64,000 nucleotides of DNA from Bacteroidota bacterium. Its GTDB lineage: Bacteria > Bacteroidota > Bacteroidia > Bacteroidales > VadinHA17. This document shows, in pieces, positions 13,051 to 49,134 of this stretch. Within the stretch, counting starts at the first letter, position 1; each line of letters begins with the position of its first letter. A model generated the notes under the pieces. That model ran no database searches, was not told the DNA's origin, and saw nothing but the letters and a program-made list of their open reading frames with translations. The position numbers were made by a program, and so were the translations under genes. The stretch spans positions 42,809 to 106,808 of the forward strand of contig JAYEGY010000117.1 in the NCBI GenBank assembly GCA_034659275.1, read 5' to 3'.

Positions 13051-13153
13051 TATGAATTATGAATATCGAATAACGAATGTCGAATATTGAAGTAATACGA
13101 ATAAAACAATTCTTCGTCATTCGCTAATCGATATTCGATATTCATCATTCAAA
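13051..13153. repeat. Inverted pair of heptad arrays (NNNGAAT x5-6 / ATTCNNN x5-6) forming a ~34-bp-arm imperfect hairpin
   Basis: The left arm 13059-13092 and the reverse complement of the right arm 13112-13145 match at 26 of 34 positions, including the first 14. The loop is ~19 nt. The right array runs into the miaA stop codon and last codons. Confidence 0.75.
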
Positions 13154-14086
13154 GCCCTGATTAATTAGTTTTAACGCTGAATCCAATTTCTGCTGGTTAT
13201 TAAGTTTGCCGTCGAGCCAGTGTATAGTAATGCCCCGCCGTTCCATACCCCTGAACCAGGTCATCTGTCTTTTTGCAAACCGGTGTATGGCAGTCTCAAG
13301 GCTCTTTTTCATCGCATCATAACTGATCCTACCCTTGAGGTAATGAGTAATATACCTGTATTCCAAACCGTAATAAGCCAGGTCATCAGGCGAGACACGC
13401 CTTTCCAGCAGAGACTTAACTTCTTCCACCATACCTGATTGCAGTCGTGATTCCAGCCTCATGCTTATTCTCTTCCGTATTTCATCCCTCTCAAAGCTGA
13501 TGCCCAGTATAAGTGGCCTTATCTGCGGGAAATAATCATCGCCGGTATCATTCTCCTGATAGTATTCCTCAATCTCAATAGCCCTTATAGCTCTTTCCCG
13601 GTCATCGATATCTGTTATGTTATGGAGGGTTTTATAAGACGAGAGTATTTTGGTCAGTTCAGCAAGCGATTTATCACCCAGCCTTCTTCTCAGTTCTTTA
13701 TTTACCGGTACTTCAATCAGCTTATACCTGCTCACTATGCTATCGATATACATACCTGAACCACCGCATACTACCGGCAGAACATCCCTTTCTTTAAGTT
13801 CCCTGTACACCCTGAGAAAATCCCGCTGGTATTCATATACGCTGTATTTACAACCCGGATCAACAATATCGATAAGATGGTAAGGTATCTTCTTCCCATC
13901 CACAATATAATCATCATAATCCTTGCCTGTGCCAATATTCATTTCACGGTATACCTGCCTGGAATCTGCACTTATTATTTCACCGCCGGTTGCTGAGGCC
14001 AGGAGGGAAGCAAAGCTGGTTTTACCTGAAGCAGTAGGCCCGGTTACCACAACTATATCCACTATATCATAATTGCTGCTTGCCAT
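13145..14086 (-). CDS. miaA: tRNA dimethylallyltransferase
   Basis: 313-aa ORF with P-loop GPTASGKTS and MiaA-typical blocks (SADSRQVYREMNIGTGK, HLIDI). Confidence 0.9.
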   Translation of the reverse strand: MASSNYDIVDIVVVTGPTASGKTSFASLLASATGGEIISADSRQVYREMNIGTGKDYDDYIVDGKKIPYHLIDIVDPGCKYSVYEYQRDFLRVYRELKERDVLPVVCGGSGMYIDSIVSRYKLIEVPVNKELRRRLGDKSLAELTKILSSYKTLHNITDIDDRERAIRAIEIEEYYQENDTGDDYFPQIRPLILGISFERDEIRKRISMRLESRLQSGMVEEVKSLLERRVSPDDLAYYGLEYRYITHYLKGRISYDAMKKSLETAIHRFAKRQMTWFRGMERRGITIHWLDGKLNNQQKLDSALKLINQGFE

Positions 14087-14143
14087 ACCTGAATTGTTTC
14101 TTTAAAATTAGTTATTTTTGCTGCTTTGTAAAATACAATCGAT

Positions 14144-14734
14144 ATGATCGACCTTCGGATGCTCAGTGACAGGGCAAGATATATTATTATACACCCGGTG
14201 AATGCTTGGGAAACGATAAGGGATGAAAGCAGGTCAGTTAGAACGGTGCAATCCTCATTTCTCATTCCTTTGCTCTTATTAATATCGCTTTCTGCCTTTG
14301 CCGGTTCATTAATATATAATCCTACGGGTCTGTCAATATTATTTCCAATAATACTGGCATTAAAGCAATTTATCAGCTTTTACCTGACTGTTTTGCTTTC
14401 ATCGTGGGTCCTCAATGAGTTTTCCCTTGTCTTTATACAAAGCAAAGATTATTCCTTTAATTTTAAGCTGGTTACATATTCTCTTACTCCTCTCTTCGTT
14501 ACTGTTTTTATAACCAGGCTCTTACCTGATCTGGCACTGATAAACATCCTTTCACTTTATGGTGCTTACATCCTGTATTGCGGTTTGAAAACTATTCAAA
14601 ATATTACAGGGCAAAGTTTATTAAGATACTTTATTGTAGCTTTGCTTACCATAATAGTATTTTATTTTGCCATAAGCTGGATGAGTAGTTCATTGCTGGA
14701 AGGCATGTATTTTGCATTTGCAGGTAAGGTATGA
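14144..14734 (+). CDS. Yip1-family integral membrane protein
   Basis: 196-aa ORF with ~5 TM helices and a Yip1/DUF1282-like N-terminus ([15 protein letters not shown]). Overlaps the smpB start by 4 nt. Confidence 0.55.
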
Positions 14735-15192
14735 AGAAAGAAAAGAAACATAATACTGTCATTAAGAACAAGAAAGCATCACGTGATTACACCTTTATTG
14801 ATACCTATATTGCCGGGATACAGCTTACCGGTACAGAGATAAAATCAATCAGGGCAGGGAAAGTGAGTCTGGTTGATTCATATTGCAGGTTCAGAAATGG
14901 TGAATTATTTGTTACGGGAATGAATATTGCTGAATATTACTGGGGTAATATCAATAATCATGAGCCCCGGAGGGAAAGAAAGCTCTTGCTGCATAAAAAA
15001 GAATTGAAAAAGCTTGAAAGAAAAACAAAGGAAAGCGGACTGACCATCATTATGACAAAGCTGTTTATAAATGACCGCGGTATAGCCAAAGCTGAAATAG
15101 CACTTGCCAGGGGTAAAAAAGAATATGACCAGAGGGAAACACTTAAGCGAAAGGATGCACAGAGAGAAATAGACAGGAAGCTTAAGTTCTGA
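14731..15192 (+). CDS. smpB: SsrA-binding protein SmpB
   Basis: 153-aa ORF with a typical SmpB sequence ([29 protein letters not shown]…[12 protein letters not shown]). Confidence 0.93.
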
Positions 15193-15984: not shown

Positions 15985-15994
15985 AAAATAAATA

Positions 15995-16705: not shown

Positions 16706-16735
16706 AATATTTAAAAATAATAAATATACACCAAG

Positions 16736-19579: not shown

Positions 19580-19584
19580 AATTA

Positions 19585-20526: not shown

Positions 20527-20674
20527 ATAGTAAATATTAAATAATTTAAAAATACATCCTGCCTGATAAACATTTCTTTTTTTTCAGGGCAAGGCACCAC
20601 TAAATTAACGAATATGCAAAGTTAATGTTTTTGCATACACATCATTAATTCAAATATGATTTACGATATGTTTT

Positions 20675-21985: not shown

Positions 21986-22535
21986 TCATCCTTTTCTTTA
22001 TTCCAAAATATATTTCAAGTTTCTTCTGAAGTATAGCTCTTGCCCTTGACAGGTTTGACTTTGACGTTCCCTCAGAAATATTAAGCTTTACGGCAATTTC
22101 TTTATGAGAGTAACCTTCCAATGCATACAGGTTAAACACCATTCTGTATTTAGGTGGCAATTCCATAATAAAATTGAGCAGGTCTTGTGATTCCAGTCCT
22201 GAAATATCAGCAGCTTCCAGTTCAGGTAAGGTATCATTGCTGTATCCCTCCTCCTCCACCTTATTGAGATAATACCTGTCACGGTGTTTTTCCAGAGCTG
22301 TATTTACAACAATACGTCTCATCCAGCCTTCAAAAGAACCATCACCGTTGAAAGTATGCAGGCCAGTAAATATTTTTATGAAGCTTTCCTGCAGCACATC
22401 CCTGGCCTCGTCATACGAGCCAGAATACTGAAGGCTCACTCCATAAAACTTTGCAGAGTACCTCCGGTAAAGCAGCTCCTGGTCACGTTTATTTCCTGAC
22501 AGGCAGCCCCTGAGTATTTTCCGCAGTTCAGGCAA
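21978..22535 (-). CDS. ECF-type RNA polymerase sigma-70 factor
   Basis: 185-aa ORF with region 2 (DVLQESFIKIF…) and region 4 HTH (EGYSHKEIAVKLNISEGTSKSNLSRAR). The annotated start is TTG, so the true start is uncertain. Confidence 0.85.
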   Translation of the reverse strand: MPELRKILRGCLSGNKRDQELLYRRYSAKFYGVSLQYSGSYDEARDVLQESFIKIFTGLHTFNGDGSFEGWMRRIVVNTALEKHRDRYYLNKVEEEGYSNDTLPELEAADISGLESQDLLNFIMELPPKYRMVFNLYALEGYSHKEIAVKLNISEGTSKSNLSRARAILQKKLEIYFGIKKRMNG

Positions 22536-22654
22536 TTTATTTCTGTTTAGAATATAAATATAGAAATAAATTATGATATGCGGAAAATGTACCTGCTACA
22601 CTTCCACTAAAGGATAGATGAAAAACTGACTTTATTGGTTGCGTTGAATCAGAT

Positions 22655-22832
22655 GTAATTGGTTACGCTTCGCGTGACGTAATTTTTTTCGCTCTGGTTT
22701 TGACATGATTAATTACGCGACCACTGTGACCTCCGTAGCTTTAGCGAAGGAGGGACGGGAGCAAATTACACCCGCGTAAGCAGGTAATTTACGAGAGCGG
22801 AGCGAACTAATTACGCGAACGCAGTGAGCCAT
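22655..22832. repeat. Degenerate ~22-23-bp units built on AATTACG(C) words, directly abutting the lpd stop
   Basis: Three tandem units at 22763-22784, 22785-22807 and 22808-22830. The exact 11-mer taattacgcga occurs at 22710-22720 and 22808-22818. Several local hairpins are present (aaattac…gtaattt; cctcc…ggagg). Confidence 0.6.
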
Positions 22833-24221: not shown

Positions 24222-24230
24222 AATATCTGT

Positions 24231-24258
24231 GTTTCTCGTTTCTCGTTGCTCGTCCCCA
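24231..24258. repeat. 7-bp tandem units gtttctc gtttctc gttgctc gtcccca, 10 nt upstream of the lpd start
   Basis: Read directly from the sequence. Confidence 0.8.
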
Positions 24259-24282
24259 CTGACCACAATCACTGGCCGTTCC

Positions 24283-24380
24283 GAAAAAGCTAGCTTTTTC
24301 GAGAATCCTCGAATCCAAGATTCGGGACTCGCGAGCTCGCAGTACTCGCTTGCCTTCGGCAAACTCGCGCTGCTCGGTTG
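24283..24380. repeat. Palindrome-rich extragenic element (copy A)
   Basis: Contains a perfect 18-bp palindrome gaaaaagctagctttttc (24283-24300), a cgaatc-caa-gattcg hairpin and the 17-mer gcgagctcgcagtactc (24331-24347). These are followed by a ttgcc-ttc-ggcaa hairpin and ctgctcggtt (24370-24379). The 17-mer and the ctgctcggtt box recur at 33576-33592 and 33620-33629. Confidence 0.75.
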
Positions 24381-24391
24381 TCTTTTTCCTT

Positions 24392-24412
24392 AGACGCGCT
24401 GGTAGCGCGTCT
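24392..24412. other. Perfect 9-bp GC-rich stem-loop (agacgcgct-ggt-agcgcgtct)
   Basis: Read directly. It lies between the ZnuB-like stop and repeat copy A. The flank is T-rich on the plus strand only. Confidence 0.6.
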
Positions 24413-24422
24413 CTACATTTTC

Positions 24423-24492
24423 CTTTTTACTTTTTACTTTTATCTTTTTACTTTTATCTTTTTACTTTTGTCTTTTTACTTTTGTCTTTTAT
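24423..24492. repeat. Ten tandem heptads CTTTTNN (14-bp super-unit)
   Basis: Sequence cttttta cttttta cttttat cttttta cttttat cttttta cttttgt cttttta cttttgt cttttat. The array spans the permease stop (24454-24456) and encodes its Lys-rich tail …KIKDKSKKTKVKR*. Confidence 0.9.
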
Positions 24493-25290
24493 CTTAGCCA
24501 TAACTATCCTGCTTATTACCCACAGCAGAACCAGCGTAAAAATAATTGTTGCTCCCGTAGGTATATTAAGATACCATGAAGCCGCAAAGCCTGCAAGCAT
24601 CCCGAGAAAAGCGGATATTACAGAAATAATGATAACATTCCTGAAATCCTTAGTATATAATAATGCAATATTCGGAGGTATTGTTAGCAATGAAAGCACC
24701 AGCACCACGCCCGCGATACGTATATTCAATACAATAACAAGAGATGCCAGTATGATAAGCAGGTATTTAAAAAAGTCAACCCTGGAAGAAAAAGTCCTGG
24801 CATAACTCTCATCAAAAGCAAGATACATAATAAAACGATAGTACCTTGTAAAGAAAATGAGAAGGATAACTGACATTACAGCAAGGGCAATTAAATCGGA
24901 CGTTTTGATTGTAAGAATGCTTCCGAACAGGTAACTCATAAGGTCGGGTGTATAACCCGGTGTGAGGTATATAAAAATTATACCTATAGCCATACCCAGG
25001 GCCCATAAAAAGCCAATGGCAGAATCTTCACTCACCTTTTGTCTCGATGCAAGATATTGTATGCCCATTGCTGAAGCAACACCAAAGCATGCAGCACCAA
25101 GAACCGGGCTTATACCAATAAAAAATGCGATACCAATCCCTCCAAAACTTGAATGGGTAATACCACCTGATAGAAAAACCATCTTCTTTGAAACTATATA
25201 TGAACCGGCTATCCCTGAGGTAATGCTGCCAAATATTACTGCAAGAATGCTTTTAATCAAAAAGTTATATTCGAAAAAGGCTTCAAACAT
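24454..25290 (-). CDS. Metal (Zn/Mn-type) ABC transporter permease
   Basis: I moved the start to Met-22 (ATG at 25290), 2 nt after the upstream ATPase stop. Polytopic ABC-3 family-like sequence. Confidence 0.8.
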   Translation of the reverse strand: MFEAFFEYNFLIKSILAVIFGSITSGIAGSYIVSKKMVFLSGGITHSSFGGIGIAFFIGISPVLGAACFGVASAMGIQYLASRQKVSEDSAIGFLWALGMAIGIIFIYLTPGYTPDLMSYLFGSILTIKTSDLIALAVMSVILLIFFTRYYRFIMYLAFDESYARTFSSRVDFFKYLLIILASLVIVLNIRIAGVVLVLSLLTIPPNIALLYTKDFRNVIIISVISAFLGMLAGFAASWYLNIPTGATIIFTLVLLWVISRIVMAKIKDKSKKTKVKR

Positions 25291-25292
25291 AA

Positions 25293-26036: not shown

Positions 26037-26040
26037 ATTA

Positions 26041-26901: not shown

Positions 26902-27007
26902 CGTTATCACTTTAAATAACAAATTTAATATATAACAATACAATCACACAACTGTTGTAAATGAATATCGGATAAATTACATTTGCCCCGTCAATTTTTC
27001 CGCTATT

Positions 27008-27508: not shown

Positions 27509-27549
27509 ATGATTGAGCTTCCTTAGCCTTACTGTGTCCGCCGAAGCCA

Positions 27550-31111: not shown

Positions 31112-31258
31112 TAAAGTTGAGAAGAAGTTAAGAAAAAGAAGAGTGAGTTGAGAGGTTGAATTGTTGAACCAGGTTTTAATAACATCCAGATTTAAGAAAT
31201 TCATCACTATTATATAACTAGAAACGACAACAACAATTTTCTGCAATTCGCCGGGTTT

Positions 31259-31496
31259 TGAATATCGAATATCGAATATCTATTAACGAAGGCAGAAGTA
31301 GAGTCGGCGGACGAGTGATTCTAGCTCGACGAATAAAGTGAGTTAATTTCAAATTAATTGATTTTAAAAAGTTTAATAATAAGAAATTGGGGCAGATATT
31401 AAATCATATCCAGGCAATATAAACCTCTGCAACAATGAGAATTAAACCTGAAATCATCCAGTAACTACTTCGTCATTCGGCGTTCGATATTCATTA
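31259..31496. repeat. MITE-like element bounded by the same inverted heptad termini as 13059-13145
   Basis: The left end is tgaatatcgaatatcgaatatc…acgaagg (31259-31292). The right end is cttcgtcattcggcgttcgatattcat (31470-31496), which is its imperfect reverse complement. cttcgtcattcg (12 nt) and ttcgatattcat (12 nt) are identical to 13112-13123 and 13134-13145. Confidence 0.5.
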
Positions 31497-31741
31497 TTGC
31501 CTCACCCCGAGGACTTAAGGAATTTCTACCACTAGAATAAGTTACACTTTCATTGTATAATTTCCCATATTTATACTATTTAATGATTGATATAGTAATT
31601 ATTAATATGGCGTTATAATTATTATCATTCCTATTGTTTTAATTTTACATAAGGCCTATTAAAGTCTATTTTAAATGTTTTTCTTGGAAGTTTAATAAAT
31701 ATTTTGTTAATTTATATCGCCATAATATAAATTACATATGC

Positions 31742-32188
31742 ATGAAAACTAATGAAAGTACAATTTCTCTAAAGGGCAGCATCAACATGTCAATCAAACC
31801 AACAGATCCAGTAGCATGGAAGCTATTAATGCTCTATGAAGCCGCTTCAACCAAAGCTGATAAAATCGCAAGCATAGCAAAGAAGTATGGTTATACACGC
31901 GAGCATTTTTACGTTATAAAGAAAAAATTTGATGAAAGTGGAAGTGAGGGTTTGCGTGATAAACCCAGGGGACCAAAGAGGAACTATAAAAGGACAAAAG
32001 AGTTAGAGAAGCAAATTATAAGGCACAGGTTCCTGGACCCTGAGGCAAGCTGCGAGGTTATTACCCAGAAGTTGCGACAGGCGGGTCACAATATAAGCCA
32101 ACGGAGTGTTGAACGAACCATCAATGTCTACGGACTTCAAAAAAAGAGCTACATAAAGCAGATCCGCAAAACGAGGAAATTGAAATAA
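31742..32188 (+). CDS. IS transposase OrfA (helix-turn-helix DNA-binding part)
   Basis: 148-aa ORF with HTH-like segments (IASIAKKYGYTREHFYVIKKKF; CEVITQKLRQAGHNISQRSVERTI). Confidence 0.7.
   Translation: MKTNESTISLKGSINMSIKPTDPVAWKLLMLYEAASTKADKIASIAKKYGYTREHFYVIKKKFDESGSEGLRDKPRGPKRNYKRTKELEKQIIRHRFLDPEASCEVITQKLRQAGHNISQRSVERTINVYGLQKKSYIKQIRKTRKLK
32140..32146 (+). promoter_or_regulatory. Candidate -1 programmed ribosomal frameshift heptamer A-AAA-AAG
   Basis: In the OrfA frame the codons are CAA AAA AAG. The -1 frame is open from here (KKELHKADPQNEEIEISTYETRRDN…) into the OrfB ATG at 32263. Confidence 0.5.
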
Positions 32189-32262
32189 GCACTTATGAAA
32201 CCAGGCGTGATAACGTAAGGTTAAAAATCAAACCTCAGGATAATGAGAGGGAGTTCAGGCAA

Positions 32263-33528
32263 ATGTTATCTCAAAAAGTGTCCGGGACCTCAGTGGGCAT
32301 GTGGCTTCTTGTACCAGAATTGTTAAGACTGGGAGCATGGGACATAATAAAAGCATGGACTGGAAAAACAGATATCGATCTGGATCCAAGAATAGCACTA
32401 CAGGTTGTAAACGAGACGGCTCTATGTGTAAACCGTATCAGGAGAAAGAGTTCATTGGGCCACCAGGGCTTTCAACTGGTCAATGGCATGGGAAGGTTAA
32501 TAACAGATGAGCAGGTACATACTTTGTTAAATAACCATACTACCTCTGAGGCACAGCAAATGCTGGTAAATCTAGGCATTCAAAGAAAACTATCCGGGCA
32601 CTATCCGGGGGATGTTATTGCTATTGACCCACACAGGATAATAAGCAGTTCAAAAAGAATAATGGCAAAAAAGCGTAAGCAGACCGATGCTCCTTCCAAG
32701 AAAATGCTCCAGACTTTTTTCAGTGTTTGCACCCAGACAGGACAACCTATTATGGCAAGCATCTCATCAACAGGATTACCAACTTCAAAAGCAACTGCAA
32801 ATTTAATCGATGCCACAGGAGAGATAATTAAAAAGGAAAGGCTTGTAGTTGCAGACAAGGAACATTTTACAAGAGAGTTATTAGATATATCCAGAAAACA
32901 TGAACATTTTGACTTCTTAATTCCTGCTCTTAATACCTCAAAGCTTAAAAATAAAATACAGGACCTTAATTATAAACCACTATGGGCTGGTTTTGCCATA
33001 GCCGAAACCGATTTTTGTTTTGCACATGACACAACAAAATATCGGCTTATTGCTGAAAGAACGGGAGAAACTGCAAAAAACTACTCCTATAACGCTTTCA
33101 TTACCACATCAAAAAATGATGCCAAGCAATTAATATGTAATAACTACGATAAACGGTGGTCAGTGGAAGAGTTCTTCAGGTTTGAAAACGACATGGGTTT
33201 AAACAGGGCTTCTACTCTTAACCTAAATGTCAGATATGGTAAACTGGCATTGGCTATGATAGCCCAGGCAGCAGCATACCAATTAGGAAATAAATTAAAG
33301 GAAGACTACCGTAAATGAGATGCAAAACATTTATCCAATGAAGTGCTTGCATGGGCAGATGGAGACACAAGGGTCAAGAGTGATACAATACTAATAACAT
33401 TTTATGGTAAACCTACACACTTAAATCCGCAGGATTACATAAATCTACCAGCCAGGTTAATAGCAGAAGATATAAACCCCAAAATCCCCTGGCTATATGA
33501 TTATAAAATTGATTTTAAATTTAAATAA
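32263..33528 (+). pseudogene. IS transposase OrfB (DDE domain) interrupted by an in-frame TGA at 33316-33318
   Basis: ORFs 32263..33318 and 33343..33528 are in the same frame, separated only by TGA (…EDYRK*DAKHLSNEVLAWADG…). Candidate DDE residues are IAIDPHRI, LVVADKEHF and YDKRWSVEEFF (Y-x2-R-x3-E). Confidence 0.65.
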
Positions 33529-33559: not shown

Positions 33560-33630
33560 GAGGACTCGGGGTTCGGCGAGCTCGCAGTACTCACATCCCG
33601 AATACTCGGGATATTCGCACTGCTCGGTTC
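33560..33630. repeat. Palindrome-rich extragenic element (copy B), split by the IS
   Basis: Contains gcgagctcgcagtactc (33576-33592), a cccga-atac-tcggg hairpin and ctgctcggtt (33620-33629). Its left part (…caccccgag) lies at 31503-31515, on the other side of the IS. Confidence 0.7.
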
Positions 33631-33703
33631 GCCATTCATATCTGTCCTTAATGATAGTTATTCGGAAGGAGGATACCATTTTTTTAAAATGGTTGGATCA
33701 ACT

Positions 33704-33724
33704 CATAACTTATAATTCATAATT
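33704..33724. repeat. 3 x 7-bp units cataact tataatt cataatt
   Basis: Read directly. The array lies immediately beside the terminator hairpin of the 33779 gene. Confidence 0.7.
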
Positions 33725-33778: not shown

Positions 33779-34414
33779 TTAATAGCTCTTAATTGAGAGC
33801 CTGAAGGTGCCTGTGGCATTTTTGGCCGTAACCTTGAATCCCCATTCACCTGTTTTGGTGCCGTCCTCCTCGTCAATGCTGAACGACTTTGACCAGTTGA
33901 CCGAACCGTATTCGTCAATAAGCACCTCGGTATACTTGCTTCCCGAGGGCATGGTGATCACTATAAGTATCTCTCCCTCCTCACAAATGCCGCTGACATT
34001 GATGGATGCCCTCTTTGCATCTTCTTCAATTTCGAATGTCAAGTCCTTCGTAAAGCTGCCTTCCTTAACAACCTTTGAGAATTGCAGGCTGCTCGAATTC
34101 GGAGAGCCTCCCATGAAATAATAAATACCTTCCAGGTCGGAGCCTGTAGAGAATACCGCCGGTGTACGTGTAATCCACTCTTCTTTATAGGCCTCACGAG
34201 CATTCCTTACCGCCCTCTCCATCTCATCCTCACGAATTCTGATTCTTTCCCTTGCTTCAATAGCTTCTTGCTTCTTAAACTCTTGTATCTTCTTCTGCTC
34301 AAGCATCTCCTGCTTCTTCTTTTCTTCCTCTTCCTTTGTTTGGCCAAATGCTGTTATACTGCCACCAACCAGAAGTAAAGAGACAATCATTAATATGGTA
34401 ACCTTTCTTTTCAT
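33779..34414 (-). CDS. Secreted hypothetical protein (coiled-coil N-half, beta-rich C-half)
   Basis: 211-aa ORF with signal peptide MKRKVTILMIVSLLLVGGSITAFGQ and a Glu/Lys-rich helix. No family recognised. Divergent from the two-component operon. Confidence 0.5.
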   Translation of the reverse strand: MKRKVTILMIVSLLLVGGSITAFGQTKEEEEKKKQEMLEQKKIQEFKKQEAIEARERIRIREDEMERAVRNAREAYKEEWITRTPAVFSTGSDLEGIYYFMGGSPNSSSLQFSKVVKEGSFTKDLTFEIEEDAKRASINVSGICEEGEILIVITMPSGSKYTEVLIDEYGSVNWSKSFSIDEEDGTKTGEWGFKVTAKNATGTFRLSIKSY

Positions 34415-35922: not shown

Positions 35923-35930
35923 CCAGAGCC

Positions 35931-36623
35931 ATGAAAGTATTAATAGCGGAAGATGATATTGACTTTGGCAATATACTGAGTCAGTACGTCTCTATCAACG
36001 GTTTCGAGGTTACCCTCACCCGCGATGGAAAAGAAGCCTGGGGCAGCTATAGCCGGGAAAAACCGGATATTTGTGTTCTTGACGTAATGATGCCTGAAAT
36101 GGACGGTTTCTCTCTGGCAGAGAAAATCAGGCAGAATAACCCCGATATGCCGTTCGTATTTCTCACGGCTAAAACACTCAAGGAAGATATTGTGAAAGGC
36201 CTTAAGATGGGTGCCGATGACTATATAACAAAGCCATTTGACCCCGAGGTGCTTATACTGCGTCTTAATAATATACTTAAAAGGGTTTATACCACTGTTA
36301 ATGATGAATACACCATATCTTCCACCACTCTCAAATTTAACACGCTCGAGCTACACTGCAAAGGCAAAAAAGAAAAGTTAACCCTCAAGGAAGCACAATT
36401 GCTTCGCTACCTCATGGCCAATAAAGACAGTATATTACGCCGCGATGCCATCCTCAACGAAGTATGGGGTGAGGATGATTATTTCCTGGGTCGCAGCATG
36501 GATGTCTTTATCAGCAGGCTGAGGAAGTACCTGTCACCAGATCCCGGAATTGAGCTCAGGACAATAAGAGGTACGGGCTTTGTGCTTGAAGAGACAGGTA
36601 AAGAGATGAGAGATGAGAGATGA
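35931..36623 (+). CDS. OmpR/PhoB-family response regulator
   Basis: 230-aa ORF with a receiver domain ([10 protein letters not shown]) and a winged-helix output (…[11 protein letters not shown]…IRGTGFVLE). The last codons (EMRDER*) are encoded by the tandem array. Confidence 0.9.
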
Positions 36624-36831
36624 GAGGCGAAAGATGAGATGCGAGAGGCGAAAGATGAGATGCGAGAGGCGAAAGATGAGATGCGAGAGGCGAAAGATGA
36701 GATGCGAGAGGCGAAAGATGAAATGCGAGAGGCGAAAGATGAGATGCGAGAGGCGAAAGATGAAATGCGAGAGGCGAAAGATGAGATGCGAGAGGCGAAA
36801 GGTGGGAGGCGAGAGGCGAAAGGTGGGAGGC
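36603..36831 (+). repeat. 229-bp purine-rich tandem array: gagatga x3 then ~10 x 21-bp gagatgcgagaggcgaaagat (7-bp sub-period)
   Basis: Units read directly at 36615, 36636, 36657, 36678, 36699, 36720, 36741, 36762, 36783 and 36804. Variants are gaaatg in two units and ggt/gggaggc in the last two. Confidence 0.95.
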
Positions 36832-36927
36832 TAAATACTAAAGACAAGATCTCAAGTCAATAACCGGTAATCATAGAACATTTTACTATTTTTGACGGCG
36901 AACCCTGCTTGATCAAAAACAACAGGA

Positions 36928-38043
36928 ATGAATAGTAACAGGCTGCTTCCTCTGATTCTTATTTTCTTTCTGACAGTTAAACCGGGTATGCTGCTGTCGC
37001 AGACTGACAGTCTTCATAAGCCGGTAGTGATCGGTTTGCATGGTTCATATGGATTCATAATTCCACATTCCAGTAAGATTGAACCTGTTTCTCATAGCAA
37101 TCCGTTTTCGTTAGAGCTGAACTTCGCCCTGCATCTCACTGACGAAGATATCTGGAAGTACTGCTTCTGCTATCCCCGGCTGGGGGCAGCTGTTCATTAC
37201 GTCGATTTTGGAAACAGGGAGGAACTCGGTTCGGCAATTGCACTGTACCCCTATATTGAACCATTCATAGGGGCAGGCAAAAGGCTTAGCATGGCTGTGC
37301 GCTTTGGACTGGGAATATCATATCAGACAACCATCTATGATGAGATCGATAATCCACGTAACTTGTTTTTCGGATCCCATTTTGCCTTTATAGCCATGCT
37401 TAACACGAGCCTGAATTTTAAGCTGAATGAGAACATGTACGGCAGGCTTTCTTTTAATTACAACCATCTCTCTAATGGCGGTGCCATCAAACCTAATCTT
37501 GGGATTAACTACCCCCTTTTTGGCCTTGGACTGGATTACGTTATTAAACCATATGACTTTGAAGAGAGGGAAAAGAACAGGGATATAATTTTGAATCCGG
37601 ACAGGAACCGCTTTGACCTGGCTCTCTTCTTTTCGGGACGTGAGGGTAAAGATTTTGACCGCTGGTTCGGGGTTTATGGCATCTGGGGTGGCTACAGCCG
37701 GATGGTTGGCAGGATAAGTGCCTTTTACACCGGGGCGGAGTTCGTTTCCGATCATCTTCTAAAAAGAACGGTCTGGCAGGATTATAAGGACGGCACTATA
37801 GATGAATTACCCGATCATAAGAGGCTAAGCATCCTCCTGGGTCATGAACTCGTGCTGGGTAATTTTCTTTTTTCACAGTATGCAGGCATCTATGTTTATT
37901 CCCCTGTCACTGCACCCAAACCATGGTACCAGAGGTATGCCCTGCTTTACAACTTTGCACCCTCTACATGGATCGGTGTAAATGCCAAATCCCATTACCA
38001 GGTTATCGATTTCATCGACCTGAGGCTGGTAAGGTCATTCTGA
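36928..38043 (+). CDS. Acyloxyacyl hydrolase / lipid A deacylase (PagL-like) outer-membrane protein with extra C-terminal half
   Basis: 371-aa ORF with a signal peptide. The N-terminal ~190 aa looks like a beta-barrel with the HxSNG motif (FNYNHLSNGGAIKPNLGIN) typical of the PagL family. A further ~170 aa is beta-rich and ends …LRLVRSF. Confidence 0.55.
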   Translation: MNSNRLLPLILIFFLTVKPGMLLSQTDSLHKPVVIGLHGSYGFIIPHSSKIEPVSHSNPFSLELNFALHLTDEDIWKYCFCYPRLGAAVHYVDFGNREELGSAIALYPYIEPFIGAGKRLSMAVRFGLGISYQTTIYDEIDNPRNLFFGSHFAFIAMLNTSLNFKLNENMYGRLSFNYNHLSNGGAIKPNLGINYPLFGLGLDYVIKPYDFEEREKNRDIILNPDRNRFDLALFFSGREGKDFDRWFGVYGIWGGYSRMVGRISAFYTGAEFVSDHLLKRTVWQDYKDGTIDELPDHKRLSILLGHELVLGNFLFSQYAGIYVYSPVTAPKPWYQRYALLYNFAPSTWIGVNAKSHYQVIDFIDLRLVRSF

Positions 38044-38064
38044 TGATTTTAGAGATCCTTCGCT

Positions 38065-38113
38065 GCGCTCAGGATGACAAGGCGCTCAGGATGACAAGGC
38101 GCTCAGGATGACA
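38065..38113. repeat. 3 x 17-bp tandem repeat gcgctcaggatgacaag filling the convergent spacer
   Basis: Units at 38065-38081, 38082-38098 and 38099-38113. The last unit abuts the TAA (38114-38116) of the minus-strand S9 peptidase. Confidence 0.9.
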
Positions 38114-40645: not shown

Positions 40646-40960
40646 AAATTCTGAATCATCCGTAATCTTTATGTCGGTACCACATTCTGACTCATATTTT
40701 TTTTCACCTTTCTTATCATAGAGAAATATTTTTGAATCACCTCGCCATGGTTCGATCTTATATGCTATCCATTCACCATCGTCTGAAATTACCCTTTCGG
40801 TAATCCTGTTCCACGATTCAATATCATCATGTGTAAGGTTTTTTTCTGTGCTGTAAGATTGGATGCAAAAAGGAAAAACAAGAAAGCCAGAAAATATGAA
40901 TTGATTTTTTTCATTGTATGAAGTGTTTATTTCGTGTTTTTAATTTGCACTTATACGTGC

Positions 40961-40992
40961 TAATTCGTATAAATTCGTGATAATTCGTATTA
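40961..40992 (-). repeat. 3 x 10-bp tandem units (taattcgtat aaattcgtga taattcgtat) abutting and including the tlpA-like stop codon
   Basis: Read directly. The unit family ATTCGYRTWA is the same as at 6161-6180. Confidence 0.8.
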
Positions 40993-42090: not shown

Positions 42091-42130
42091 ATTGATATTT
42101 TTAAAGTACGCAAAAGAAATAAAAAAAATA

Positions 42131-43234: not shown

Positions 43235-43244
43235 TAATAATCAA

Positions 43245-44333: not shown

Positions 44334-44571
44334 ATTAAATAAAATTTAGTATAGTATCGCCTTGAATATTTAATTATTACGACAAATAATAAAACCAAAT
44401 AGTTGCCCCGGTTGTTATTACAAAAAACAGACCAGTATACATTTTACGGGCTAAAATTAATAAAGTTTGTAATTTTTCGCTATTAATTCATAACATATTA
44501 TCTTAGCTTTGTTTATCAGTGAATTCTTTTGGAATAAAATTTGAAGTCTTTTTTTTTCACAAATATCAAAT

Positions 44572-47500
44572 GTGCATTTGAACGTAAAAATCAGACATAT
44601 AATTCTGACAATCCTTCTTTCTGTAATTAGTGTGACGGCAAACAGCCAGTTTTATAATGGCCTGCAAATGACATTTGGCAAAAACCGCCTGCAATATTAC
44701 GATTTTTACTGGTCATTTTATCGCTTTGACTATTTCGATGTTTATTTTAATGAATACGGTAAAGAACTTGCGCAGTATACTGCCAGTGTAGCACAGGATA
44801 AGATTGCTGAAATCGAGGATTATTTTGATTATATACTTGAGAAAAGACTGATATTTATTACTTACAATCTACACGGGGAGCAAAAACAGACCAATATAGG
44901 CCTGGTAACCGGGCAGGACGATTATAATATCGGGGGCTTTAGCCGGACAATAAAGAACAAGGTGATGCTTTATTATGAAGGCAAGCATGAGGAATACGAT
45001 CAACAGATAGCAGCTGCCATTACGGAGGCAATGATAAACGAGATGCTTTATGATGCAGACCGCAGGGACAGGATACCGGGATCATCACAAATCAGTCTTC
45101 CCGATTGGTATTTGAAAGGCCTGGTAAATTATATTGCCAGGGGTTGGGATTATGAGACAGAGAACAAGGTCAGGGATGGCATACTCTCCGGCAGGTATAA
45201 AAAGCTTAATTTCCTGGAATATGATGCTGCTGTTTATGCAGGCCATTCGTTCTGGAGATACATAGCTAAAACATATGGAGACCCTATTATTCCAAATGTT
45301 ATCTACCTTACAAAGATTTACAAAAATGTGGATGATGGCTTAATGTACGTTCTCGGGATGAAGCTTAAAGACCTTCAGAAAGAATGGTATGAATACTATA
45401 AAGAGTATTATGAAAATATTGAAAATGGGGATCCGACTGATGAACCGGGCGAAAAAATACATGAAACAAAAAAGAGAAGAATAATCCAGGATGTTAGTAT
45501 AAGTCCCGATGAGAGATATGTTGCATATATAACCTATAACTGGGGTAAGCGTAAAATATGGATACATGATACGGAGACCGGCAAGCGGGAAAAGATCTTT
45601 TCTATAGAACCGAAGTATGAACAGGTAACAGACATAAGCTACCCCGTGCTTGGTTGGCATCCTAACAGCCGTATACTTACTTTTATAAATGAAGAAAAAG
45701 GCGACCTGAAAATATACTTCCACCGCCTGGTTGGCAATGAAACAGAAAGCCGTAACCTGCTTTATTTTGAAAAAGTACTGGACTTTGATTACTCACCCAA
45801 TGGTAACAGGCTGGTGATGTCGGCAGTGAAAAACAGCCTCACTGATATATATGTCCATACAATAGCTTCAGGCACTAATGAACAGATAACACGGGATGTC
45901 GCAGACGACCTCAATCCAAGATATATAAAATCTGCTGAAAACAGTATAATATTCAGCTCCAACAGGTTGAACGACACACTGGATATTCCGTTTGACCCGA
46001 TTGCAAAAACAGGATTGACATATGACCTCTTCACTTATGACCTGGAAAAAGATGATAAGGTGGCAATAAGATTATCTGAAGGTGAGTATATCGAACGCTT
46101 CCAACCGATAGCAAGGAACCCCAGGGAGATCTATTATCTCGGGGATATGTCCGGTACAATAAATAAATACGTCGCCAGGTTCGACAGCACAATCAGTTAT
46201 ATTGACACTACTACGCATTACAGGTATTTTATTAAATCGGACCCTCTTACCAATTACAACAGGAATATTATTGAACATGACTTTGCGGGGAACACTGTGG
46301 CCGAGATCAAGTTCAAAGATGGCAGTTACCATTTATATACGGGGCCGGTGAATGAGCAACAACCAATACCTGAGGAAGAACTTGTCACAACTAATTACAG
46401 GGAGGAGAAAACGGAAATACTTCATGAGGCCGACAGCATTGAACAATTGAGGCAAGAACTTATAGAGCTGGACAGGCGCAGGCGTGATACCCTCCAAAAA
46501 CCATTGTATGAGTACTATGCCACTGATGAGCCCATAGATATTAATTATTATATTTTCGAAAAGGAAAAAGAAAATTATTACGAGCAGCAATGGCGTGAAG
46601 ATTATATGGGTATTGAGCTTGATACAGGCAAATTAAAATTCCCGGCAATAAGAATATATGAAACATCTTTCTACAATAATTATATTGCTAACCAGGTAGA
46701 TTTCAATTTCCTGAACCAGTCATACCAGGCATACAGCGGAGGAGCACCATATTTCAACCCGGGCTTCAACCTGCTTACCCAGATAGGGGCAGTTGATCTG
46801 TTTGAAGATTACAAGATAACCGGTGGATTCAGGTTTGCAGGTAATTTTGACAGCAATGAGTACCTGTTAAGCATTGAAAACCTGAAAGGCAGCTTTGACA
46901 AGCAATTTGTATTTCACCGCCAGGCAATAAGCAGCTATAACGACGATGACTATTTCAAAATACACAGCCATAACCTGTATTTCACCCTGGCCAAACCCTT
47001 AAGCCCGGTTCTGGCCCTGAAAGGAACCATAAGCTACAGGAACGACAGGTACGTGGCACTGGCAACCGATATAAACTCACTCAACGACGATGCTATCTAC
47101 CGTAACTGGGGGGGGTTGAAATATGAAATTGTATACGACAATACCAGAAACAGAGGGGTTAACATTTATTTTGGAACCCGATTTAAAATTTTTGGTGAGT
47201 ATTACACCGATGTACAGAAGAAAAAGACAGATATGTTCGTTGTTGGTGCCGATTTCAGGCATTACCTCCGGATACACCGCGACCTGATATGGGCTAACAG
47301 GTTTGCAGCCAGTTCATCTTTCGGTCCAACAAAACTGCTGTACTACCTCGGCGGAGTCGATAATTGGCTCGGCTTCCTGTTCAATGACGTGCCTATGTTT
47401 GATAAATCAGTACCGGTTGATCCTACGGCTAACTATGCTTTTCATACCCTGGCAACCAATATGAGAGGATTCAGCCAGAATATCAGGAATGGTAATAATT

Positions 47501-47853
47501 TTGCACTTATCAACAGCGAAATAAGATGGCCGGTGATAAGGTATATTGCAGGACGTCCCCTCAAATCCAAAATATTGAATGACTTCCAGGTAGTAGCTTT
47601 TGGGGATATTGGCGCAGCATGGAGCGGTCCGGACCCATGGTCGGGAGAAAACAAATGGGATACCGAAACTATTGAAAACGGACCTGTTAAAGTGTATCTC
47701 AACACTAACAGGCAACCAATAGTCGGTGGCTTTGGATTTGGATTGAGAGCAAATCTCTTTGGCTATTTCGTAAGAGCTGACTGGGCATGGGGTGTGGAAA
47801 ACTTAAATATCCTGCCGGGAATCTTCTACCTCTCTTTCAGCCTCGATTTTTAG
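44572..47853 (+). CDS. Large outer-membrane protein: TolB-like beta-propeller region plus Omp85/BamA-like C-terminal barrel
   Basis: 1093-aa ORF with a GTG start (an alternative TTG lies at 44578) and a signal-like N-terminus. It has WD40/TolB-like repeats (SISPDERYVAYITYNWGKRKIWIHD; DYSPNGNRLVMSA). The C-terminus resembles the surface-antigen barrel (…GFGFGLRANLFGYFVRADWAWG…). Confidence 0.6.
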   Translation: MHLNVKIRHIILTILLSVISVTANSQFYNGLQMTFGKNRLQYYDFYWSFYRFDYFDVYFNEYGKELAQYTASVAQDKIAEIEDYFDYILEKRLIFITYNLHGEQKQTNIGLVTGQDDYNIGGFSRTIKNKVMLYYEGKHEEYDQQIAAAITEAMINEMLYDADRRDRIPGSSQISLPDWYLKGLVNYIARGWDYETENKVRDGILSGRYKKLNFLEYDAAVYAGHSFWRYIAKTYGDPIIPNVIYLTKIYKNVDDGLMYVLGMKLKDLQKEWYEYYKEYYENIENGDPTDEPGEKIHETKKRRIIQDVSISPDERYVAYITYNWGKRKIWIHDTETGKREKIFSIEPKYEQVTDISYPVLGWHPNSRILTFINEEKGDLKIYFHRLVGNETESRNLLYFEKVLDFDYSPNGNRLVMSAVKNSLTDIYVHTIASGTNEQITRDVADDLNPRYIKSAENSIIFSSNRLNDTLDIPFDPIAKTGLTYDLFTYDLEKDDKVAIRLSEGEYIERFQPIARNPREIYYLGDMSGTINKYVARFDSTISYIDTTTHYRYFIKSDPLTNYNRNIIEHDFAGNTVAEIKFKDGSYHLYTGPVNEQQPIPEEELVTTNYREEKTEILHEADSIEQLRQELIELDRRRRDTLQKPLYEYYATDEPIDINYYIFEKEKENYYEQQWREDYMGIELDTGKLKFPAIRIYETSFYNNYIANQVDFNFLNQSYQAYSGGAPYFNPGFNLLTQIGAVDLFEDYKITGGFRFAGNFDSNEYLLSIENLKGSFDKQFVFHRQAISSYNDDDYFKIHSHNLYFTLAKPLSPVLALKGTISYRNDRYVALATDINSLNDDAIYRNWGGLKYEIVYDNTRNRGVNIYFGTRFKIFGEYYTDVQKKKTDMFVVGADFRHYLRIHRDLIWANRFAASSSFGPTKLLYYLGGVDNWLGFLFNDVPMFDKSVPVDPTANYAFHTLATNMRGFSQNIRNGNNFALINSEIRWPVIRYIAGRPLKSKILNDFQVVAFGDIGAAWSGPDPWSGENKWDTETIENGPVKVYLNTNRQPIVGGFGFGLRANLFGYFVRADWAWGVENLNILPGIFYLSFSLDF

Positions 47854-47870
47854 ACATACCAGATCAATAT

Positions 47871-49079
47871 ATGGACAGCATAGCGGAAACCATCAGTCAG
47901 AGTGCCAGGGAAATATTTGATGAGACTGTGAGTCTCAGAAGACATTTTCATATGTACCCTGAATTATCCTTTAATGAGTATGATACTTCTCAATTTATAT
48001 GTGATTACCTCGATAAACATAAAATTGACTATATCAGGAACCTTGCAGGAACAGGTATAATAGCATGGATAAAAGGTGCAAAAGAAAATGGGAAAGTGAT
48101 TGCTCTCCGTACCGAGCTGGATGCATTACCCGTTAAAGAAGCAACCGGCCTGGAATACGCCAGTAAAAAAAGCGGAATTATGCATGCATGTGGACATGAT
48201 GCGCATATGGCTATGCTGATATCGTCAATAATAATAATAAAGGGGATAAGGAAACACTTTGGAGGCAAGATAGCTTTCATATTTCAACCCGGCGAAGAAC
48301 TTGCTCCCGGCGGTGCACGTTTAATTATGGACACAGGAGCCTTTAAAGACCTTAATCCCGATCTTGTCATCGCACAGCATGTGCTGCCTGAATTTGAATC
48401 AGGTATGACGGGCTTCAGGGCTGGTAAATATATGGCATCAAGCGATGAAATACATATAAGAATATACGGGCGTGGAGGACATGCTGCATTGGCTGATCAA
48501 TACACCGACCAGGTATTGATAGGAAGCGAACTGGTGGTAAGACTAAAAGAAGCTGCCGCTAATTATAATACAAAAGAACCCCTGGTATTGGGGATAGGGC
48601 ATTTTACAGCCCAAGGTGCAGCCAACGTGGTACCGGAAGAAGTGAATATCAAGGGTACTATACGAACATTCGATGAAAAAATAAGGAAGGATATAAAAGA
48701 GCTCGTTTCCCTTATATGCAAACAAACAGAAGAAAAATACAGGGTAAATATTGAACTTAAAATACCCGATGGTTATCCTGTACTGGTAAATAATGACGAA
48801 TATATCAATATGTCTGTTAACCTGGCAAAAGAAATCAACGGGGAAAATATGGTTAAGGAAATCGGACCGAGAATGAGCTCTGAGGATTTCGCATTCTATG
48901 CACAAAAGTATCCGGTTGTATTTTACCGCCTTGGCATCAGCAGCAAATCAGAAGGTAAAAACGGACTCCACACACCGGTTTTCACTCTCGATGAAAAAAC
49001 AATGATCACGGGGGTGAGAACACTGAGCTACCTGGGAGTCAAATTTACAGGTAGCAGGGAACAGGGGACTTTTGAATAA
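47871..49079 (+). CDS. M20 family amidohydrolase (N-acyl-amino-acid amidohydrolase type)
   Basis: I place the start at the ATG at 47871 (MDSIAETISQ…); the ORF-track extension overlaps the upstream gene. Motifs HMYPELSFNE and MHACGHDAHM are present. Confidence 0.85.
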   Translation: MDSIAETISQSAREIFDETVSLRRHFHMYPELSFNEYDTSQFICDYLDKHKIDYIRNLAGTGIIAWIKGAKENGKVIALRTELDALPVKEATGLEYASKKSGIMHACGHDAHMAMLISSIIIIKGIRKHFGGKIAFIFQPGEELAPGGARLIMDTGAFKDLNPDLVIAQHVLPEFESGMTGFRAGKYMASSDEIHIRIYGRGGHAALADQYTDQVLIGSELVVRLKEAAANYNTKEPLVLGIGHFTAQGAANVVPEEVNIKGTIRTFDEKIRKDIKELVSLICKQTEEKYRVNIELKIPDGYPVLVNNDEYINMSVNLAKEINGENMVKEIGPRMSSEDFAFYAQKYPVVFYRLGISSKSEGKNGLHTPVFTLDEKTMITGVRTLSYLGVKFTGSREQGTFE

Positions 49080-49113
49080 GCTATTAAAATACATTAAAGT
49101 ACTTCCTGCCCCA

Positions 49114-49134
49114 TGCTCCCTGCTCCCTGCTCCC
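49114..49134. repeat. 3 x 7-bp units tgctccc
   Basis: Read directly. The array starts 35 nt after the amidohydrolase stop, with degenerate copies flanking (cctgccc…tgcaac). Confidence 0.8.

Follow-up and report, generated by a model that had tools for sequence, protein, structure and literature searches.

Tandem arrays with a 7-nt period recur at gene ends throughout a 64,000-nt stretch of contig JAYEGY010000117.1 from a Bacteroidota bacterium (hereafter, the window), and in our opinion they are likely to be heptanucleotide long simple sequence repeats (SSRs), born by slippage, which are restricted to non-coding DNA and pass a translational filter where genes end. The period is in excess whatever the repeat unit; the arrays are confined to non-coding DNA, originate from local seeds, turn over between species, form higher-order units, and show a bias of orientation that is limited to gene boundaries. 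As far as one can judge from the sequences of relatives, the recurring feature of a junction is its repetitive character and not its sequence.

The window was compared with related Bacteroidales loci, designated below by the letter L and a number. The larger survey set comprised the window and 80 such loci, that is, 1.33 Mb, of which 88.7% is coding. Arrays were called with Tandem Repeats Finder (TRF); period histograms over the 1.33 Mb use TRF rows with scores of at least 40, and densities by gap type use heptad arrays with scores of at least 30. Chance levels were estimated from 50 dinucleotide-preserving shuffles of the window and from 100 shuffles of each intergenic segment separately. Independent assemblies were represented by Logan contigs from runs SRR26901925 and SRR26901928 (two samples with the window's species), reached via look-ups of miaA and of the ferredoxin, M14 carboxypeptidase and PagL genes. 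The gene identities named in an earlier note on this DNA, made by a model from the sequence alone, were confirmed by open reading frames (ORFs) and Pfam domains.

Excess and placement of heptanucleotide arrays

All eight loci named in the earlier note are present, and TRF reports period-7 arrays at 13050–13091, 13113–13150, 24231–24253, 24414–24495, 31260–31280, 33700–33722, 36602–36639 and 49105–49137. Identity at lag 7 is 0.63–0.88 in all nine arrays, compared to 0.14–0.58 at lags 3–6 and 8–11. Sixteen TRF rows of period 7, 14 or 21 are found in the window, whereas the dinucleotide shuffles average 1.7 such rows and never exceed 5, so that these periods exceed the shuffles approximately 10-fold or more; enrichment is seen for no other period. 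The comparison with shuffled intergenic sequence, which the note had proposed as a check, confirms the excess (10 rows observed, mean 0.61, maximum 3), with periods 9–11 near expectation. In the autocorrelation scan of the window essentially just lags 7, 14 and 21 stand out; other lags yield at most single matches (17 and 20) or are seen solely in low-complexity sequence (6 and 11). Taken alone, the arrays at 24231–24253 (TRF score 39) and 33700–33722 (score 32) are near the chance level.

The larger set demonstrates the same bias. Its intergenic DNA contains 26 TRF rows of period 7, 14 of period 14 and seven of period 21, with 6–11 rows for each of the periods 8–12. The respective numbers in coding DNA are 5, 7 and 6, and the commonest coding periods are multiples of 3 (20 rows for period 12). 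As a family, periods 7, 14 and 21 account for 47 intergenic vs. 18 coding rows, or, after merging into arrays, for 34 arrays in gene gaps and three at locus edges vs. 13 in coding regions. The density of the family per intergenic kb is approximately 1.0–1.2 in the window, 0.58 in the nine closest relatives, and 0.26 in all other loci; in those closest relatives, period 8 equals period 7 in frequency. A bias towards heptads thus extends across the order, repeats are generally abundant in the clade to which the window belongs, and the window itself stands at the upper end.

Independent assemblies reproduce four arrays wholly or in part. The hairpin at 13050 is identical over its full length in the contigs from both runs, and the array at 49105 is spanned by independent contigs, being identical in a 26-kb contig. 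One contig passes through the three GAATATC units at 31260–31280 and ends approximately 30 nt beyond, and one is 100% identical to 36772–38081, ending within a 21-bp array on one side and within a 17-bp repeat on the other. The existence of the arrays is therefore confirmed; since contigs break in the longest of them, the copy numbers given for long arrays rest on the source assembly. The idea that the arrays result from chance or from an assembly artefact, the latter allowed for in the earlier note, draws on the fact that the two longest arrays break short-read contigs, so that copy numbers could be revised. Against it, the shuffle controls are exceeded, the sequence is identical across independent assemblies, and many related genomes show the same phenomenon; its probability is negligible, and as regards the existence of the arrays a pure artefact is refuted.

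The claimed link to gene ends also stands. Defining as stop-adjacent those arrays that overlap a stop codon or lie at most 10 nt from it, we observe in the 1.33 Mb of the larger set 19 such arrays among 48 of period 7 or 14, compared to eight among 63 of periods 8, 10, 11 and 13 (Fisher test, p = 0.0016; p = 0.005 without orthologous duplicates). Compared with arrays placed at random inside their gaps, the number next to stops is not significantly raised (12 observed, 8.7 expected, p = 0.10). The density of heptad arrays per kb is 0.73 in convergent, 0.38 in co-directional and 0.21 in divergent gaps (chi-square p = 0.022), and no trend by gap type is seen for periods 8–13 (p = 0.34). No window array is situated in a divergent (promoter–promoter) gap.

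Moreover, arrays do supply last codons and stops of genes, as had been suggested: the stop of the ABC-3 permease gene (24454–24456) and that of a response regulator gene (36621–36623) lie inside arrays. Since 7 and 3 have no common factor, any unit with a TAA, TAG or TGA stops every frame within three units, and this frame-independent termination explains how gene ends can be supplied by a non-coding period. In stop-adjacent arrays the average number of frames closed by stops is 1.58 on the sense and 0.74 on the antisense strand, closure being better in the sense orientation in ten arrays and worse in one (sign test, p = 0.012); arrays away from stops show no asymmetry (1.66 vs. 1.41). Four arrays overlap coding ends by at least 15 nt, those of the window permease, the window regulator, an unrelated gene of L003, and uvrA of L078, and each of them, read in sense, has stops in all three frames.

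Purines make up 64% of the sense strand of heptad arrays in co-directional gaps (Wilcoxon p = 0.002; A 0.47, T 0.22), compared to 51% in repeats of other periods and 50.5% in all such gaps. As the start- and stop-adjoining (seed) regions have 51–55% purine, the composition of seeds accounts for this bias only in part. Within the window, the orientation of arrays follows the local gene (six out of seven arrays) and not the chromosome strand.

Arrays at individual gene junctions

At the end of an OmpR-type response regulator gene, AGAGATG heptads (three to five copies; 36597–36639, plus strand) encode the last codons (KEMRDER) and contain the TGA stop; the Pfam domains of the regulator are complete by residue 219 of 230. 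They pass into a non-coding 21-bp repeat, AGATGAG ATGCGAG AGGCGAA, present in ten copies at 36611–36844 on the plus strand (by TRF, 36611–36822, 10.1 copies, 94% matches, score 368), which takes up the greater part of the 304-nt gap that separates the regulator gene from a PagL-like one (36928). This region had been described as 33 heptads at 36603–36831. There are in fact three to five heptads and ten 21-bp units, but the 21-bp unit is indeed built from heptads: identity is 0.96 at lag 21 and still 0.63 at lag 7 (approximately 0.2 at lags 6 and 8), hence the array is a higher-order repeat of three diverged heptads. The RNA of this array is predicted to be unstructured (z = –0.36).

Two relatives illustrate the history of this junction. 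L094, with an 89% identical regulator, lacks the 21-bp array, and GAGAGATGAGC contains both its regulator stop and, overlapping it, its PagL start; the GAGAGATGAG stop/start overlap of this relative corresponds in the window to (AGAGATG)n and the 21-bp higher-order repeat. In L090, with a 93% identical regulator and no PagL gene, ATGAGAG ATGAGAT is followed by inverted CTCATCA CTCACCA CTCACTG, again with no 21-bp array. Judging from these relatives, the unit of the regulator array is the old junction sequence. Further downstream in the window, a perfect 17-bp tandem repeat (GCGCTCAGGATGACAAG, 2.9 copies by TRF; 38065–38113, no strand assigned) separates the stops of the convergent PagL-like and S9 peptidase genes, which in L094 are 5 nt apart.

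The frame of the regulator stays open for 80 codons past its TGA (EAKDEMR repeated ten times; 36624–36863, with an ORF at 36639–36863), and a second frame is open as well (KMRCERR). Translation of the 21-bp array as an extension of the regulator was considered and rejected: the 120 best orthologues have 222–239 amino acids (all but one 222–234) and none is extended, and the array is also absent from the syntenic L094 and L090.

In the znuB–lpd spacer of the window, two arrays are found on the minus strand. The larger one, of A-rich AAAAGNN heptads (24414–24496; TRF scores 84–111), is also read by TRF as a higher-order 14-bp unit in five copies (93% matches). It supplies the stop of the ABC-3 (ZnuB-like) permease gene and the codons of approximately 13 residues before it (KIKDKSKKTKVKR), extends approximately 40 nt past the stop, and is unpaired in the predicted fold. 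Homologous A-rich heptads, AAAGACA/AAAAGTA, are present with other copy numbers in L001/L087, L084 and L085, and absent in L086, and the permease tails past the conserved ..LLW(V/I)ISR vary along with these array differences. The lpd genes of the lineages that keep A-rich spacer heptads have just 77–80% DNA identity.

The smaller array, of GAGAAAC-type heptads (3.3 copies; 24231–24253; TRF score 39), lies in the lpd leader; it ends 9 nt before the ATG (24221) and is unpaired in the predicted RNA. The leader of relatives contains AACAAGTAAC, expanded to three to five copies of GAAACnn in the window, L003, L010 and L085. By its Lpd, whose closest match has 86% amino-acid identity, the window belongs to uncultured Bacteroidales; no exact protein match was found in a look-up seeking copy-number variants, and a metagenome scan with a 23-mer from the lpd start returned six loci, two of which are unrelated genes.

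The conserved core of the spacer is a GC-rich hairpin, AGACGCGC-loop-GCGCGTCT (24392–24412, no strand assigned), which adjoins the A-rich array and is not itself a repeat; in the form GTAGAGACGCGC-loop-GCGCGTCT it is retained, with changes in the stem and loop, in L001, L010, L084, L085 and L087. With the T-rich array as a tail, it is terminator-like on the plus strand, and both flanking genes are on the minus strand. The scan for sigma-70 and terminator consensus shows no enrichment and calls just this hairpin, on the strand opposite to the genes. In the predicted RNA of the whole spacer (24222–24500), five or six hairpins, this GC-rich one among them, lie between two A-rich arrays that stay unpaired (z = –4.04); an antisense or intergenic small RNA is conceivable here. 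A second dispersed intergenic element, GAGCTCGCAGTACTC...CGCnCTGCTCGGTT, forms small GC-rich hairpins resembling repetitive extragenic palindromic (REP) sequences at 24322–24382 and 33566–33640, both copies being situated in hairpin-rich spacers adjoining heptad arrays. Small hairpins and motifs of the CGCGTAATTA / CGTAAATTAC type abound in another repeat-laden spacer, the 510 nt downstream of lpd (22323–22832).

The convergent gap between the stops of an S9 peptidase gene (13023–13025) and miaA (13145–13147) is occupied by a long AT-rich hairpin at 13031–13157 (no strand assigned), with the left arm at 13050–13092 made of approximately six NNNGAAT heptads, the loop at 13093–13111, and the right arm of ATTCNNN heptads at 13112–13153. 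The right arm does run into the miaA stop, as had been stated earlier, but covers only the last two miaA codons. The inverted repeat is 40 nt long and 80% complementary, and its RNA fold has an energy of –36.4 kcal/mol (z = –4.46). It differs from an intrinsic terminator, being AT-rich, having no U-tract on either strand, and escaping the terminator scan.

The hairpin arms had been listed among loci with unrelated units. The loci exist, but the units of four arms are related: a GAATATC-type arm (GGGTTTTGAATATCGAATATCGAATATC...) is found at 31253–31298 on the plus strand, 148 nt past the stop of the M14 carboxypeptidase gene (three copies with 100% matches by TRF), and its inverted partner, overlooked in the earlier note, lies at 31468–31498 on the minus strand, 169 nt apart. 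The four arms (13050–13092, 13112–13157, 31253–31298 and 31468–31498) match each other by 72–85%, share the start GGGyTTTGAAT and the end GAATGACGAAG / TTAACGAAGG (..GACGAAG), and vary in the number of heptads between. The pattern (C/T)GAATnn in three copies with two mismatches allowed matches just these arms (12 matches vs. 0.11 expected). By sequence, the arms belong to one dispersed inverted-repeat family and hold a heptad microsatellite. They form terminal inverted repeats, being 80–85% complementary. The family has two copies within the window, with unrelated interiors of 19 and 169 nt; the second element (31253–31498) is located in a co-directional gap and folds weakly better than shuffles (z = –1.78). 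The pentamer ATTCG/CGAAT is the most intergenic-enriched one in the window (approximately 4-fold) and recurs every 10 nt at the stops of two further genes (6161–6180 and 40953–40992). No copy of GAATATCGAATA was found in the 81 loci searched.

The miaA/S9 junction differs between relatives. L010 has an inverted pair of AAGATTT heptads with a 24-bp perfect stem, L006, direct and non-complementary arrays of periods 8 and 7, L007, repeats of approximately 21 nt, L004, a short hairpin, and L003, none.

Near the second GAATATC element, the window carries an insertion sequence (IS) transposase pair at 31742–33318, one gene (31742–32188) with HTH_28/HTH_32 and the other (32263–33318) with DDE_Tnp_1 domains; the syntenic L090 has no such pair and contains a 1250-aa CarboxypepD_reg gene in its place. 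L090, the closest syntenic relative, has a dispersed hairpin family of its own (3764–3852, 7680–7770 and 13675–13740) with 8-nt periodic arms (TGTTGAGG TGTTGAGG TGTTTAAC ... CGGG), a degenerate copy of which follows the M14 gene in the window (31150–31200).

Among the remaining junctions, CCTGCTC in 4.7 copies (49105–49137, plus strand; TRF score 52) follows the stop of the M20 peptidase gene by 26 nt and lies upstream of the promoter of the ferredoxin gene. At this junction ...GCCTGCTC / GAAGCTGCTC occurs once in relatives, which have a single CTGCTC ahead of that conserved promoter; its TAATTTTG –7 box and its leader are retained in L095–L101. The minus strand at 49109–49134 contains a quadruplex-type motif predicted from sequence, G3N4G3N4G3N5G4 (GGGAGCAGGGAGCAGGGAGCATGGGG); G tracts (at least four of G3+, with loops of 1–7 nt) are absent from all other window arrays, and a further canonical motif with four G3+ tracts occurs at 54137–54156 on the minus strand. 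Weak AACTCAT-type heptads (3.3 copies; 33700–33722, no strand assigned; TRF score 32, 81% matches) lie just past a terminator-like hairpin (33750–33727, minus strand) of the gene at 33779..34414.

Repeats of other periods are also present at gene ends. An approximately 10-bp repeat, TAAYRCGAAT in four copies (40953–40992, minus strand), begins at the stop codon of an AhpC/TSA-like gene, and the same unit is found at 6161–6180, at the stop of a FloA-like gene. The orthologous array of approximately 10 nt in L090 (13776–13805) is situated between a stop and a terminator made of a hairpin with U8, upstream of the S9 peptidase gene. Direct repeats of 10–11 bp would suit OmpR-type regulators, and a protein-binding role of TAAYRCGAAT is conceivable.

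Scanning of the whole window with Rfam 15 (E ≤ 1) produced chance-level matches only (for the hairpin, MIR781 with 29.8 bits vs. a gathering score of 88), and the scan for tRNA and tmRNA genes found none. Much larger heptad structures occur in more distant Bacteroidales loci: in L077 (6807–7062) AGAAGGT arrays flank 16 copies of TTGGCTT as an inverted pair, in L043 (4376–4673) eight alternating AAATCAC/AGCGCTA arrays share one spacer, and in L069 (5282–5405) nine copies of AAAAGATAAAAGGC begin at the lpd stop.

Generation of arrays and alternative explanations

The arrays would be generated by replication slippage, or by small tandem duplication, favoring a 7-nt step. Comparison with relatives shows that they are seeded by duplication of a short proto-repeat at the junction, such as a stop/start overlap, an A-rich leader, or a Lys-rich tail. 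The growth is visible in the sequences themselves: arrays lengthen, their units diverge, and groups of two or three heptads are re-amplified as 14- and 21-bp units. The confinement is shown by the statistics, as a 7-nt step wrecks the reading frame and arrays persist almost only in non-coding DNA, with selection presumably removing them from coding regions; in a genome that is approximately 89% coding, such confinement places arrays directly at gene ends. There an array may encroach upon the gene and overwrite a dispensable 3' tail. The orientation bias is observed, and its cause may be that the stop-supplying orientation, which comes with hydrophilic tails, is tolerated at stops, while the reverse one would create long read-through tails.

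As for leaders, A-rich unstructured arrays may be tolerated, and perhaps even favored, just upstream of starts in Bacteroidia. These bacteria initiate translation without Shine-Dalgarno pairing, and low mRNA structure and the identity of upstream nucleotides matter (PMC6847099), which makes it plausible that unstructured A-rich leaders, such as the lpd array, are tolerated or favorable. The inverted pairs would result from inverted duplication, yielding long hairpins in convergent gaps, which may incidentally act as transcript-end structures.

Several points weigh against this explanation. No copy-number polymorphism is seen in a very small set of two samples of the window species and four samples of the L090 species, in which only short arrays are spanned. 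Stop adjacency is specific for period 7 and not common to other periods coprime with 3, and thus is not predicted by tolerance alone. The long persistence of A-rich heptads at the znuB–lpd spacer may reflect maintenance by selection, and the purine content of the sense strand (0.64) exceeds that of seed regions (0.51–0.55). The inverted pairs require an additional step of the mechanism, and the 7-nt preference is a published hypothesis rather than a demonstrated mechanism.

The functional suggestions of the earlier note fared less well than its observations. For a dedicated enzyme, a role in termination or a binding platform one would look to a motif common to the arrays, an Rfam match or a U-tract after the hairpin, and none of these is present; a specific function is also disfavored by orthologous junctions, which carry other units, other periods (8, approximately 10, approximately 21) or nothing. 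Copy number and sequence differ among relatives at the znuB–lpd, regulator–PagL–S9, miaA/S9 and M20–ferredoxin junctions, and unit and period turn over as well. We consider it unlikely that the arrays are functional cis-elements of mRNA, that is, unstructured platforms in untranslated regions holding one single-stranded-RNA binder (a cold-shock-domain protein or S1) per approximately 7 nt and tuning stability, translation or re-initiation. Such platforms would agree with six of the seven window arrays following the local gene, with the sense-strand purine content (0.64 vs. 0.51 for other periods), with the predicted unpaired state of the arrays next to a strongly folded spacer core, and with the persistence of arrays at the znuB–lpd spacer and the lpd leader in several lineages. 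There are also precedents, as binding of S1, Csp or CsrA has been proposed for TAACTGA repeats (MacGregor, 2015, PMC4679880), and CspB binds heptamers, one protein each. However, no motif is common to the units, which differ between relatives even at the same junction, and the arrays are missing altogether in L086, L094 and L003. Some are pyrimidine-rich on the sense strand (the window array at 49105; L011 and L076), and only arrays adjoining stops or starts show the orientation bias, as expected from a translational filter. The variety of units argues for a period dictated by the process that generates the arrays, and against a sequence-specific binder. Hardly credible is the possibility of phase variation (contingency loci), with changes in copy number switching genes or altering C-termini; deletion of a single AGAGATG unit, for instance, would join the regulator to 75 residues of repeat tail. 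It is true that a 7-nt step shifts the frame, that 80 open codons follow the regulator TGA with the second frame open too, and that 7-bp repeats upstream of hmw1A control this gene in Haemophilus influenzae, but the arrays occupy 3' ends or leaders instead of promoter spacers or 5' coding regions, their neighbors are housekeeping genes (miaA, lpd, permease, peptidases), the samples show no length variation, and none of the 120 regulator orthologues is extended. Finally, the heptad arrays could be a widespread, unrecognized 3'-end module, or the footprint of a mutational process coupled to termination of transcription or translation. A module of this kind may be a cassette combining a frame-independent stop with unstructured RNA, which frees read-through or frameshifted ribosomes and loads an RNA binder with a 7-nt footprint. 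The adjacency of period 7 to stops both here and in Xanthomonas (28 nt on average) perhaps points to more than mere tolerance, and either variant, if true, would explain why unrelated phyla converge on one period and position; still, we hold this improbable.

Two further possibilities concern only the inverted pairs, and both are compatible with slippage as the source of the other arrays. It is tentatively possible that the hairpin at 13031–13157, and perhaps the element at 31253–31498, has been selected as a bidirectional transcript-end hairpin (a terminator or a 3'-end stabilizer), in which case the periodicity would be incidental to the construction of the arms. The hairpin spans the entire convergent gap, its fold is much better than those of shuffles (z = –4.46), L010 has another heptad hairpin at the same junction, with a perfect stem of 24 bp, an inverted heptad pair is present at the convergent regulator/S9 junction of L090, heptad arrays are enriched approximately 2-fold in convergent gaps, and Xanthomonas has 70–75 comparable convergent pairs. 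At the same time, neither strand has a U-tract and the terminator scan is silent, little or no hairpin is seen in L003 and L004, the arrays of L006 are direct and non-complementary, and the second element combines a weak fold (z = –1.78) with a co-directional gap. More doubtful is a mobile origin, according to which the GAATATC family is a small REP-like element or a MITE (transposable element of the miniature inverted-repeat type), with terminal inverted repeats bearing a microsatellite, that inserts downstream of genes; part of the recurrence would then be copy-and-paste and not local slippage. The common start and end of the four arms with differing numbers of heptads, the great difference in internal length of the two elements (19 vs. 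169 nt) and the IS transposase pair 250 nt from the second copy are in line with mobility, as are the analogous dispersed hairpin family of L090, with 8-nt periodic arms at three junctions, and the minisatellite-carrying MITE known in Porphyromonas gingivalis (PMC4596501). Yet only two copies are seen in the window and none in the 81 loci searched, no target-site duplication or common internal sequence was identified, and the other arrays are left unexplained.

Comparison with known repeats

The heptamer bias of bacterial long SSRs has been known since 2007 but little studied. The window with its relatives provides a compact natural series of seeds, heptads, 14- and 21-bp units, and inverted pairs, in a phylum where the bias has barely been documented, and the orientation of stop-adjacent arrays illustrates how translation filters the products of slippage. 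There are practical consequences as well: arrays break short-read assemblies, overwrite 3' ends of genes, make variable C-terminal tails, and inflate spacers between genes that once overlapped, all of which is relevant to annotation and operon prediction in metagenome-assembled Bacteroidales genomes. These findings extend a known phenomenon and leave the current understanding unchanged. Why the period is 7 nt, and why arrays adjoin stops in distant phyla, is an old question, to which the window adds clean seed-to-array examples.

The earlier note did not recognize the arrays as a described repeat class. However, intergenic excess of heptanucleotides, closeness to the upstream ORF, inverted pairs and the slippage hypothesis have all been published. 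As summarized in later papers (PMC4679880, PMC4692102), Mrázek, Guo and Shah (2007) reported heptanucleotide units to be over-represented among long SSRs of many bacteria and suggested that approximately 7 nt is the DNA stretch contacting the polymerase, which favors slippage. The window arrays resemble these SSRs, as they are summarized there, in being varied 7-nt tandem units that are over-represented, non-coding and patchy across lineages; the difference is that Bacteroidales are not among the lineages highlighted in these summaries.

The closest parallel in positioning is provided by Xanthomonas GGGAATC repeats (Rehm et al., 2015, PMC4692102), 89–93% of which are intergenic, located on average 28 nt from the upstream ORF and 160 nt from the next one, with 16% in convergent and 7–8% in divergent gaps, 70–75 convergent inverted pairs per genome, and lengths differing between sister species. 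Closeness to the upstream ORF, the excess in convergent gaps, stem-loop pairs and turnover at junctions are common to the window arrays and to these repeats, along with Nostoc GGGGA(T/C)T (PMC4692102). The likeness to the G-quadruplex type of those repeats is limited to one window array, 49105–49137 on the minus strand. Moreover, Xanthomonas has one dominant G-rich unit without preference for the coding strand (PMC4692102), whereas the units described here are diverse, mostly A- or purine-rich, and oriented to the gene near stops.

TAACTGA arrays have been described in Beggiatoaceae, cyanobacteria and five Bacteroidetes, in the latter sharing spacers with other heptamer repeats (MacGregor, 2015, PMC4679880). 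They also are intergenic heptamers oriented relative to genes, found in Bacteroidetes, and assemblies often break there (PMC4679880), but the family has one sequence and is situated mainly a few nucleotides upstream of starts, while most window arrays follow stops. Tandem TAACTGA is absent on both strands of the window, where it occurs in 11 single copies. The heptanucleotide repeats of cyanobacteria are named short tandemly repeated repetitive (STRR) sequences, with units CCCCAGT, TTGGTCA and CAACAGT. The STRR of Calothrix/Nostoc are likewise amplified non-coding heptanucleotides, but belong to a different phylum and have specific units; the window contains no tandem CCCCAGT, TTGGTCA, CAACAGT, GGGAATC, GGGGATT or GGGGACT. 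In the account given in PMC4692102, tandem heptanucleotides of Calothrix have been known since 1990.

Contingency loci of the hmw1A type also consist of slippage-prone 7-bp repeats, but these belong to the promoters or 5' coding parts of genes for surface proteins and are variable in populations, whereas the window arrays are at 3' ends of housekeeping genes and show no variation in the few samples. Among dispersed intergenic inverted repeats with variable tandem units in their arms, such as REP sequences and bacterial interspersed mosaic elements (BIMEs) or the P. gingivalis MITE (PMC4596501), only the GAATATC family finds a counterpart, differing from a MITE in having no detected hallmarks of transposition, two copies, and a 7-nt unit instead of a 20-odd-nt minisatellite. 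Taken together, the window arrays belong to the described class of heptanucleotide long SSRs and are not a new system, and what is added here to this class is the junction seeds, the 14- and 21-bp higher-order units, and the orientation filter at stop codons.

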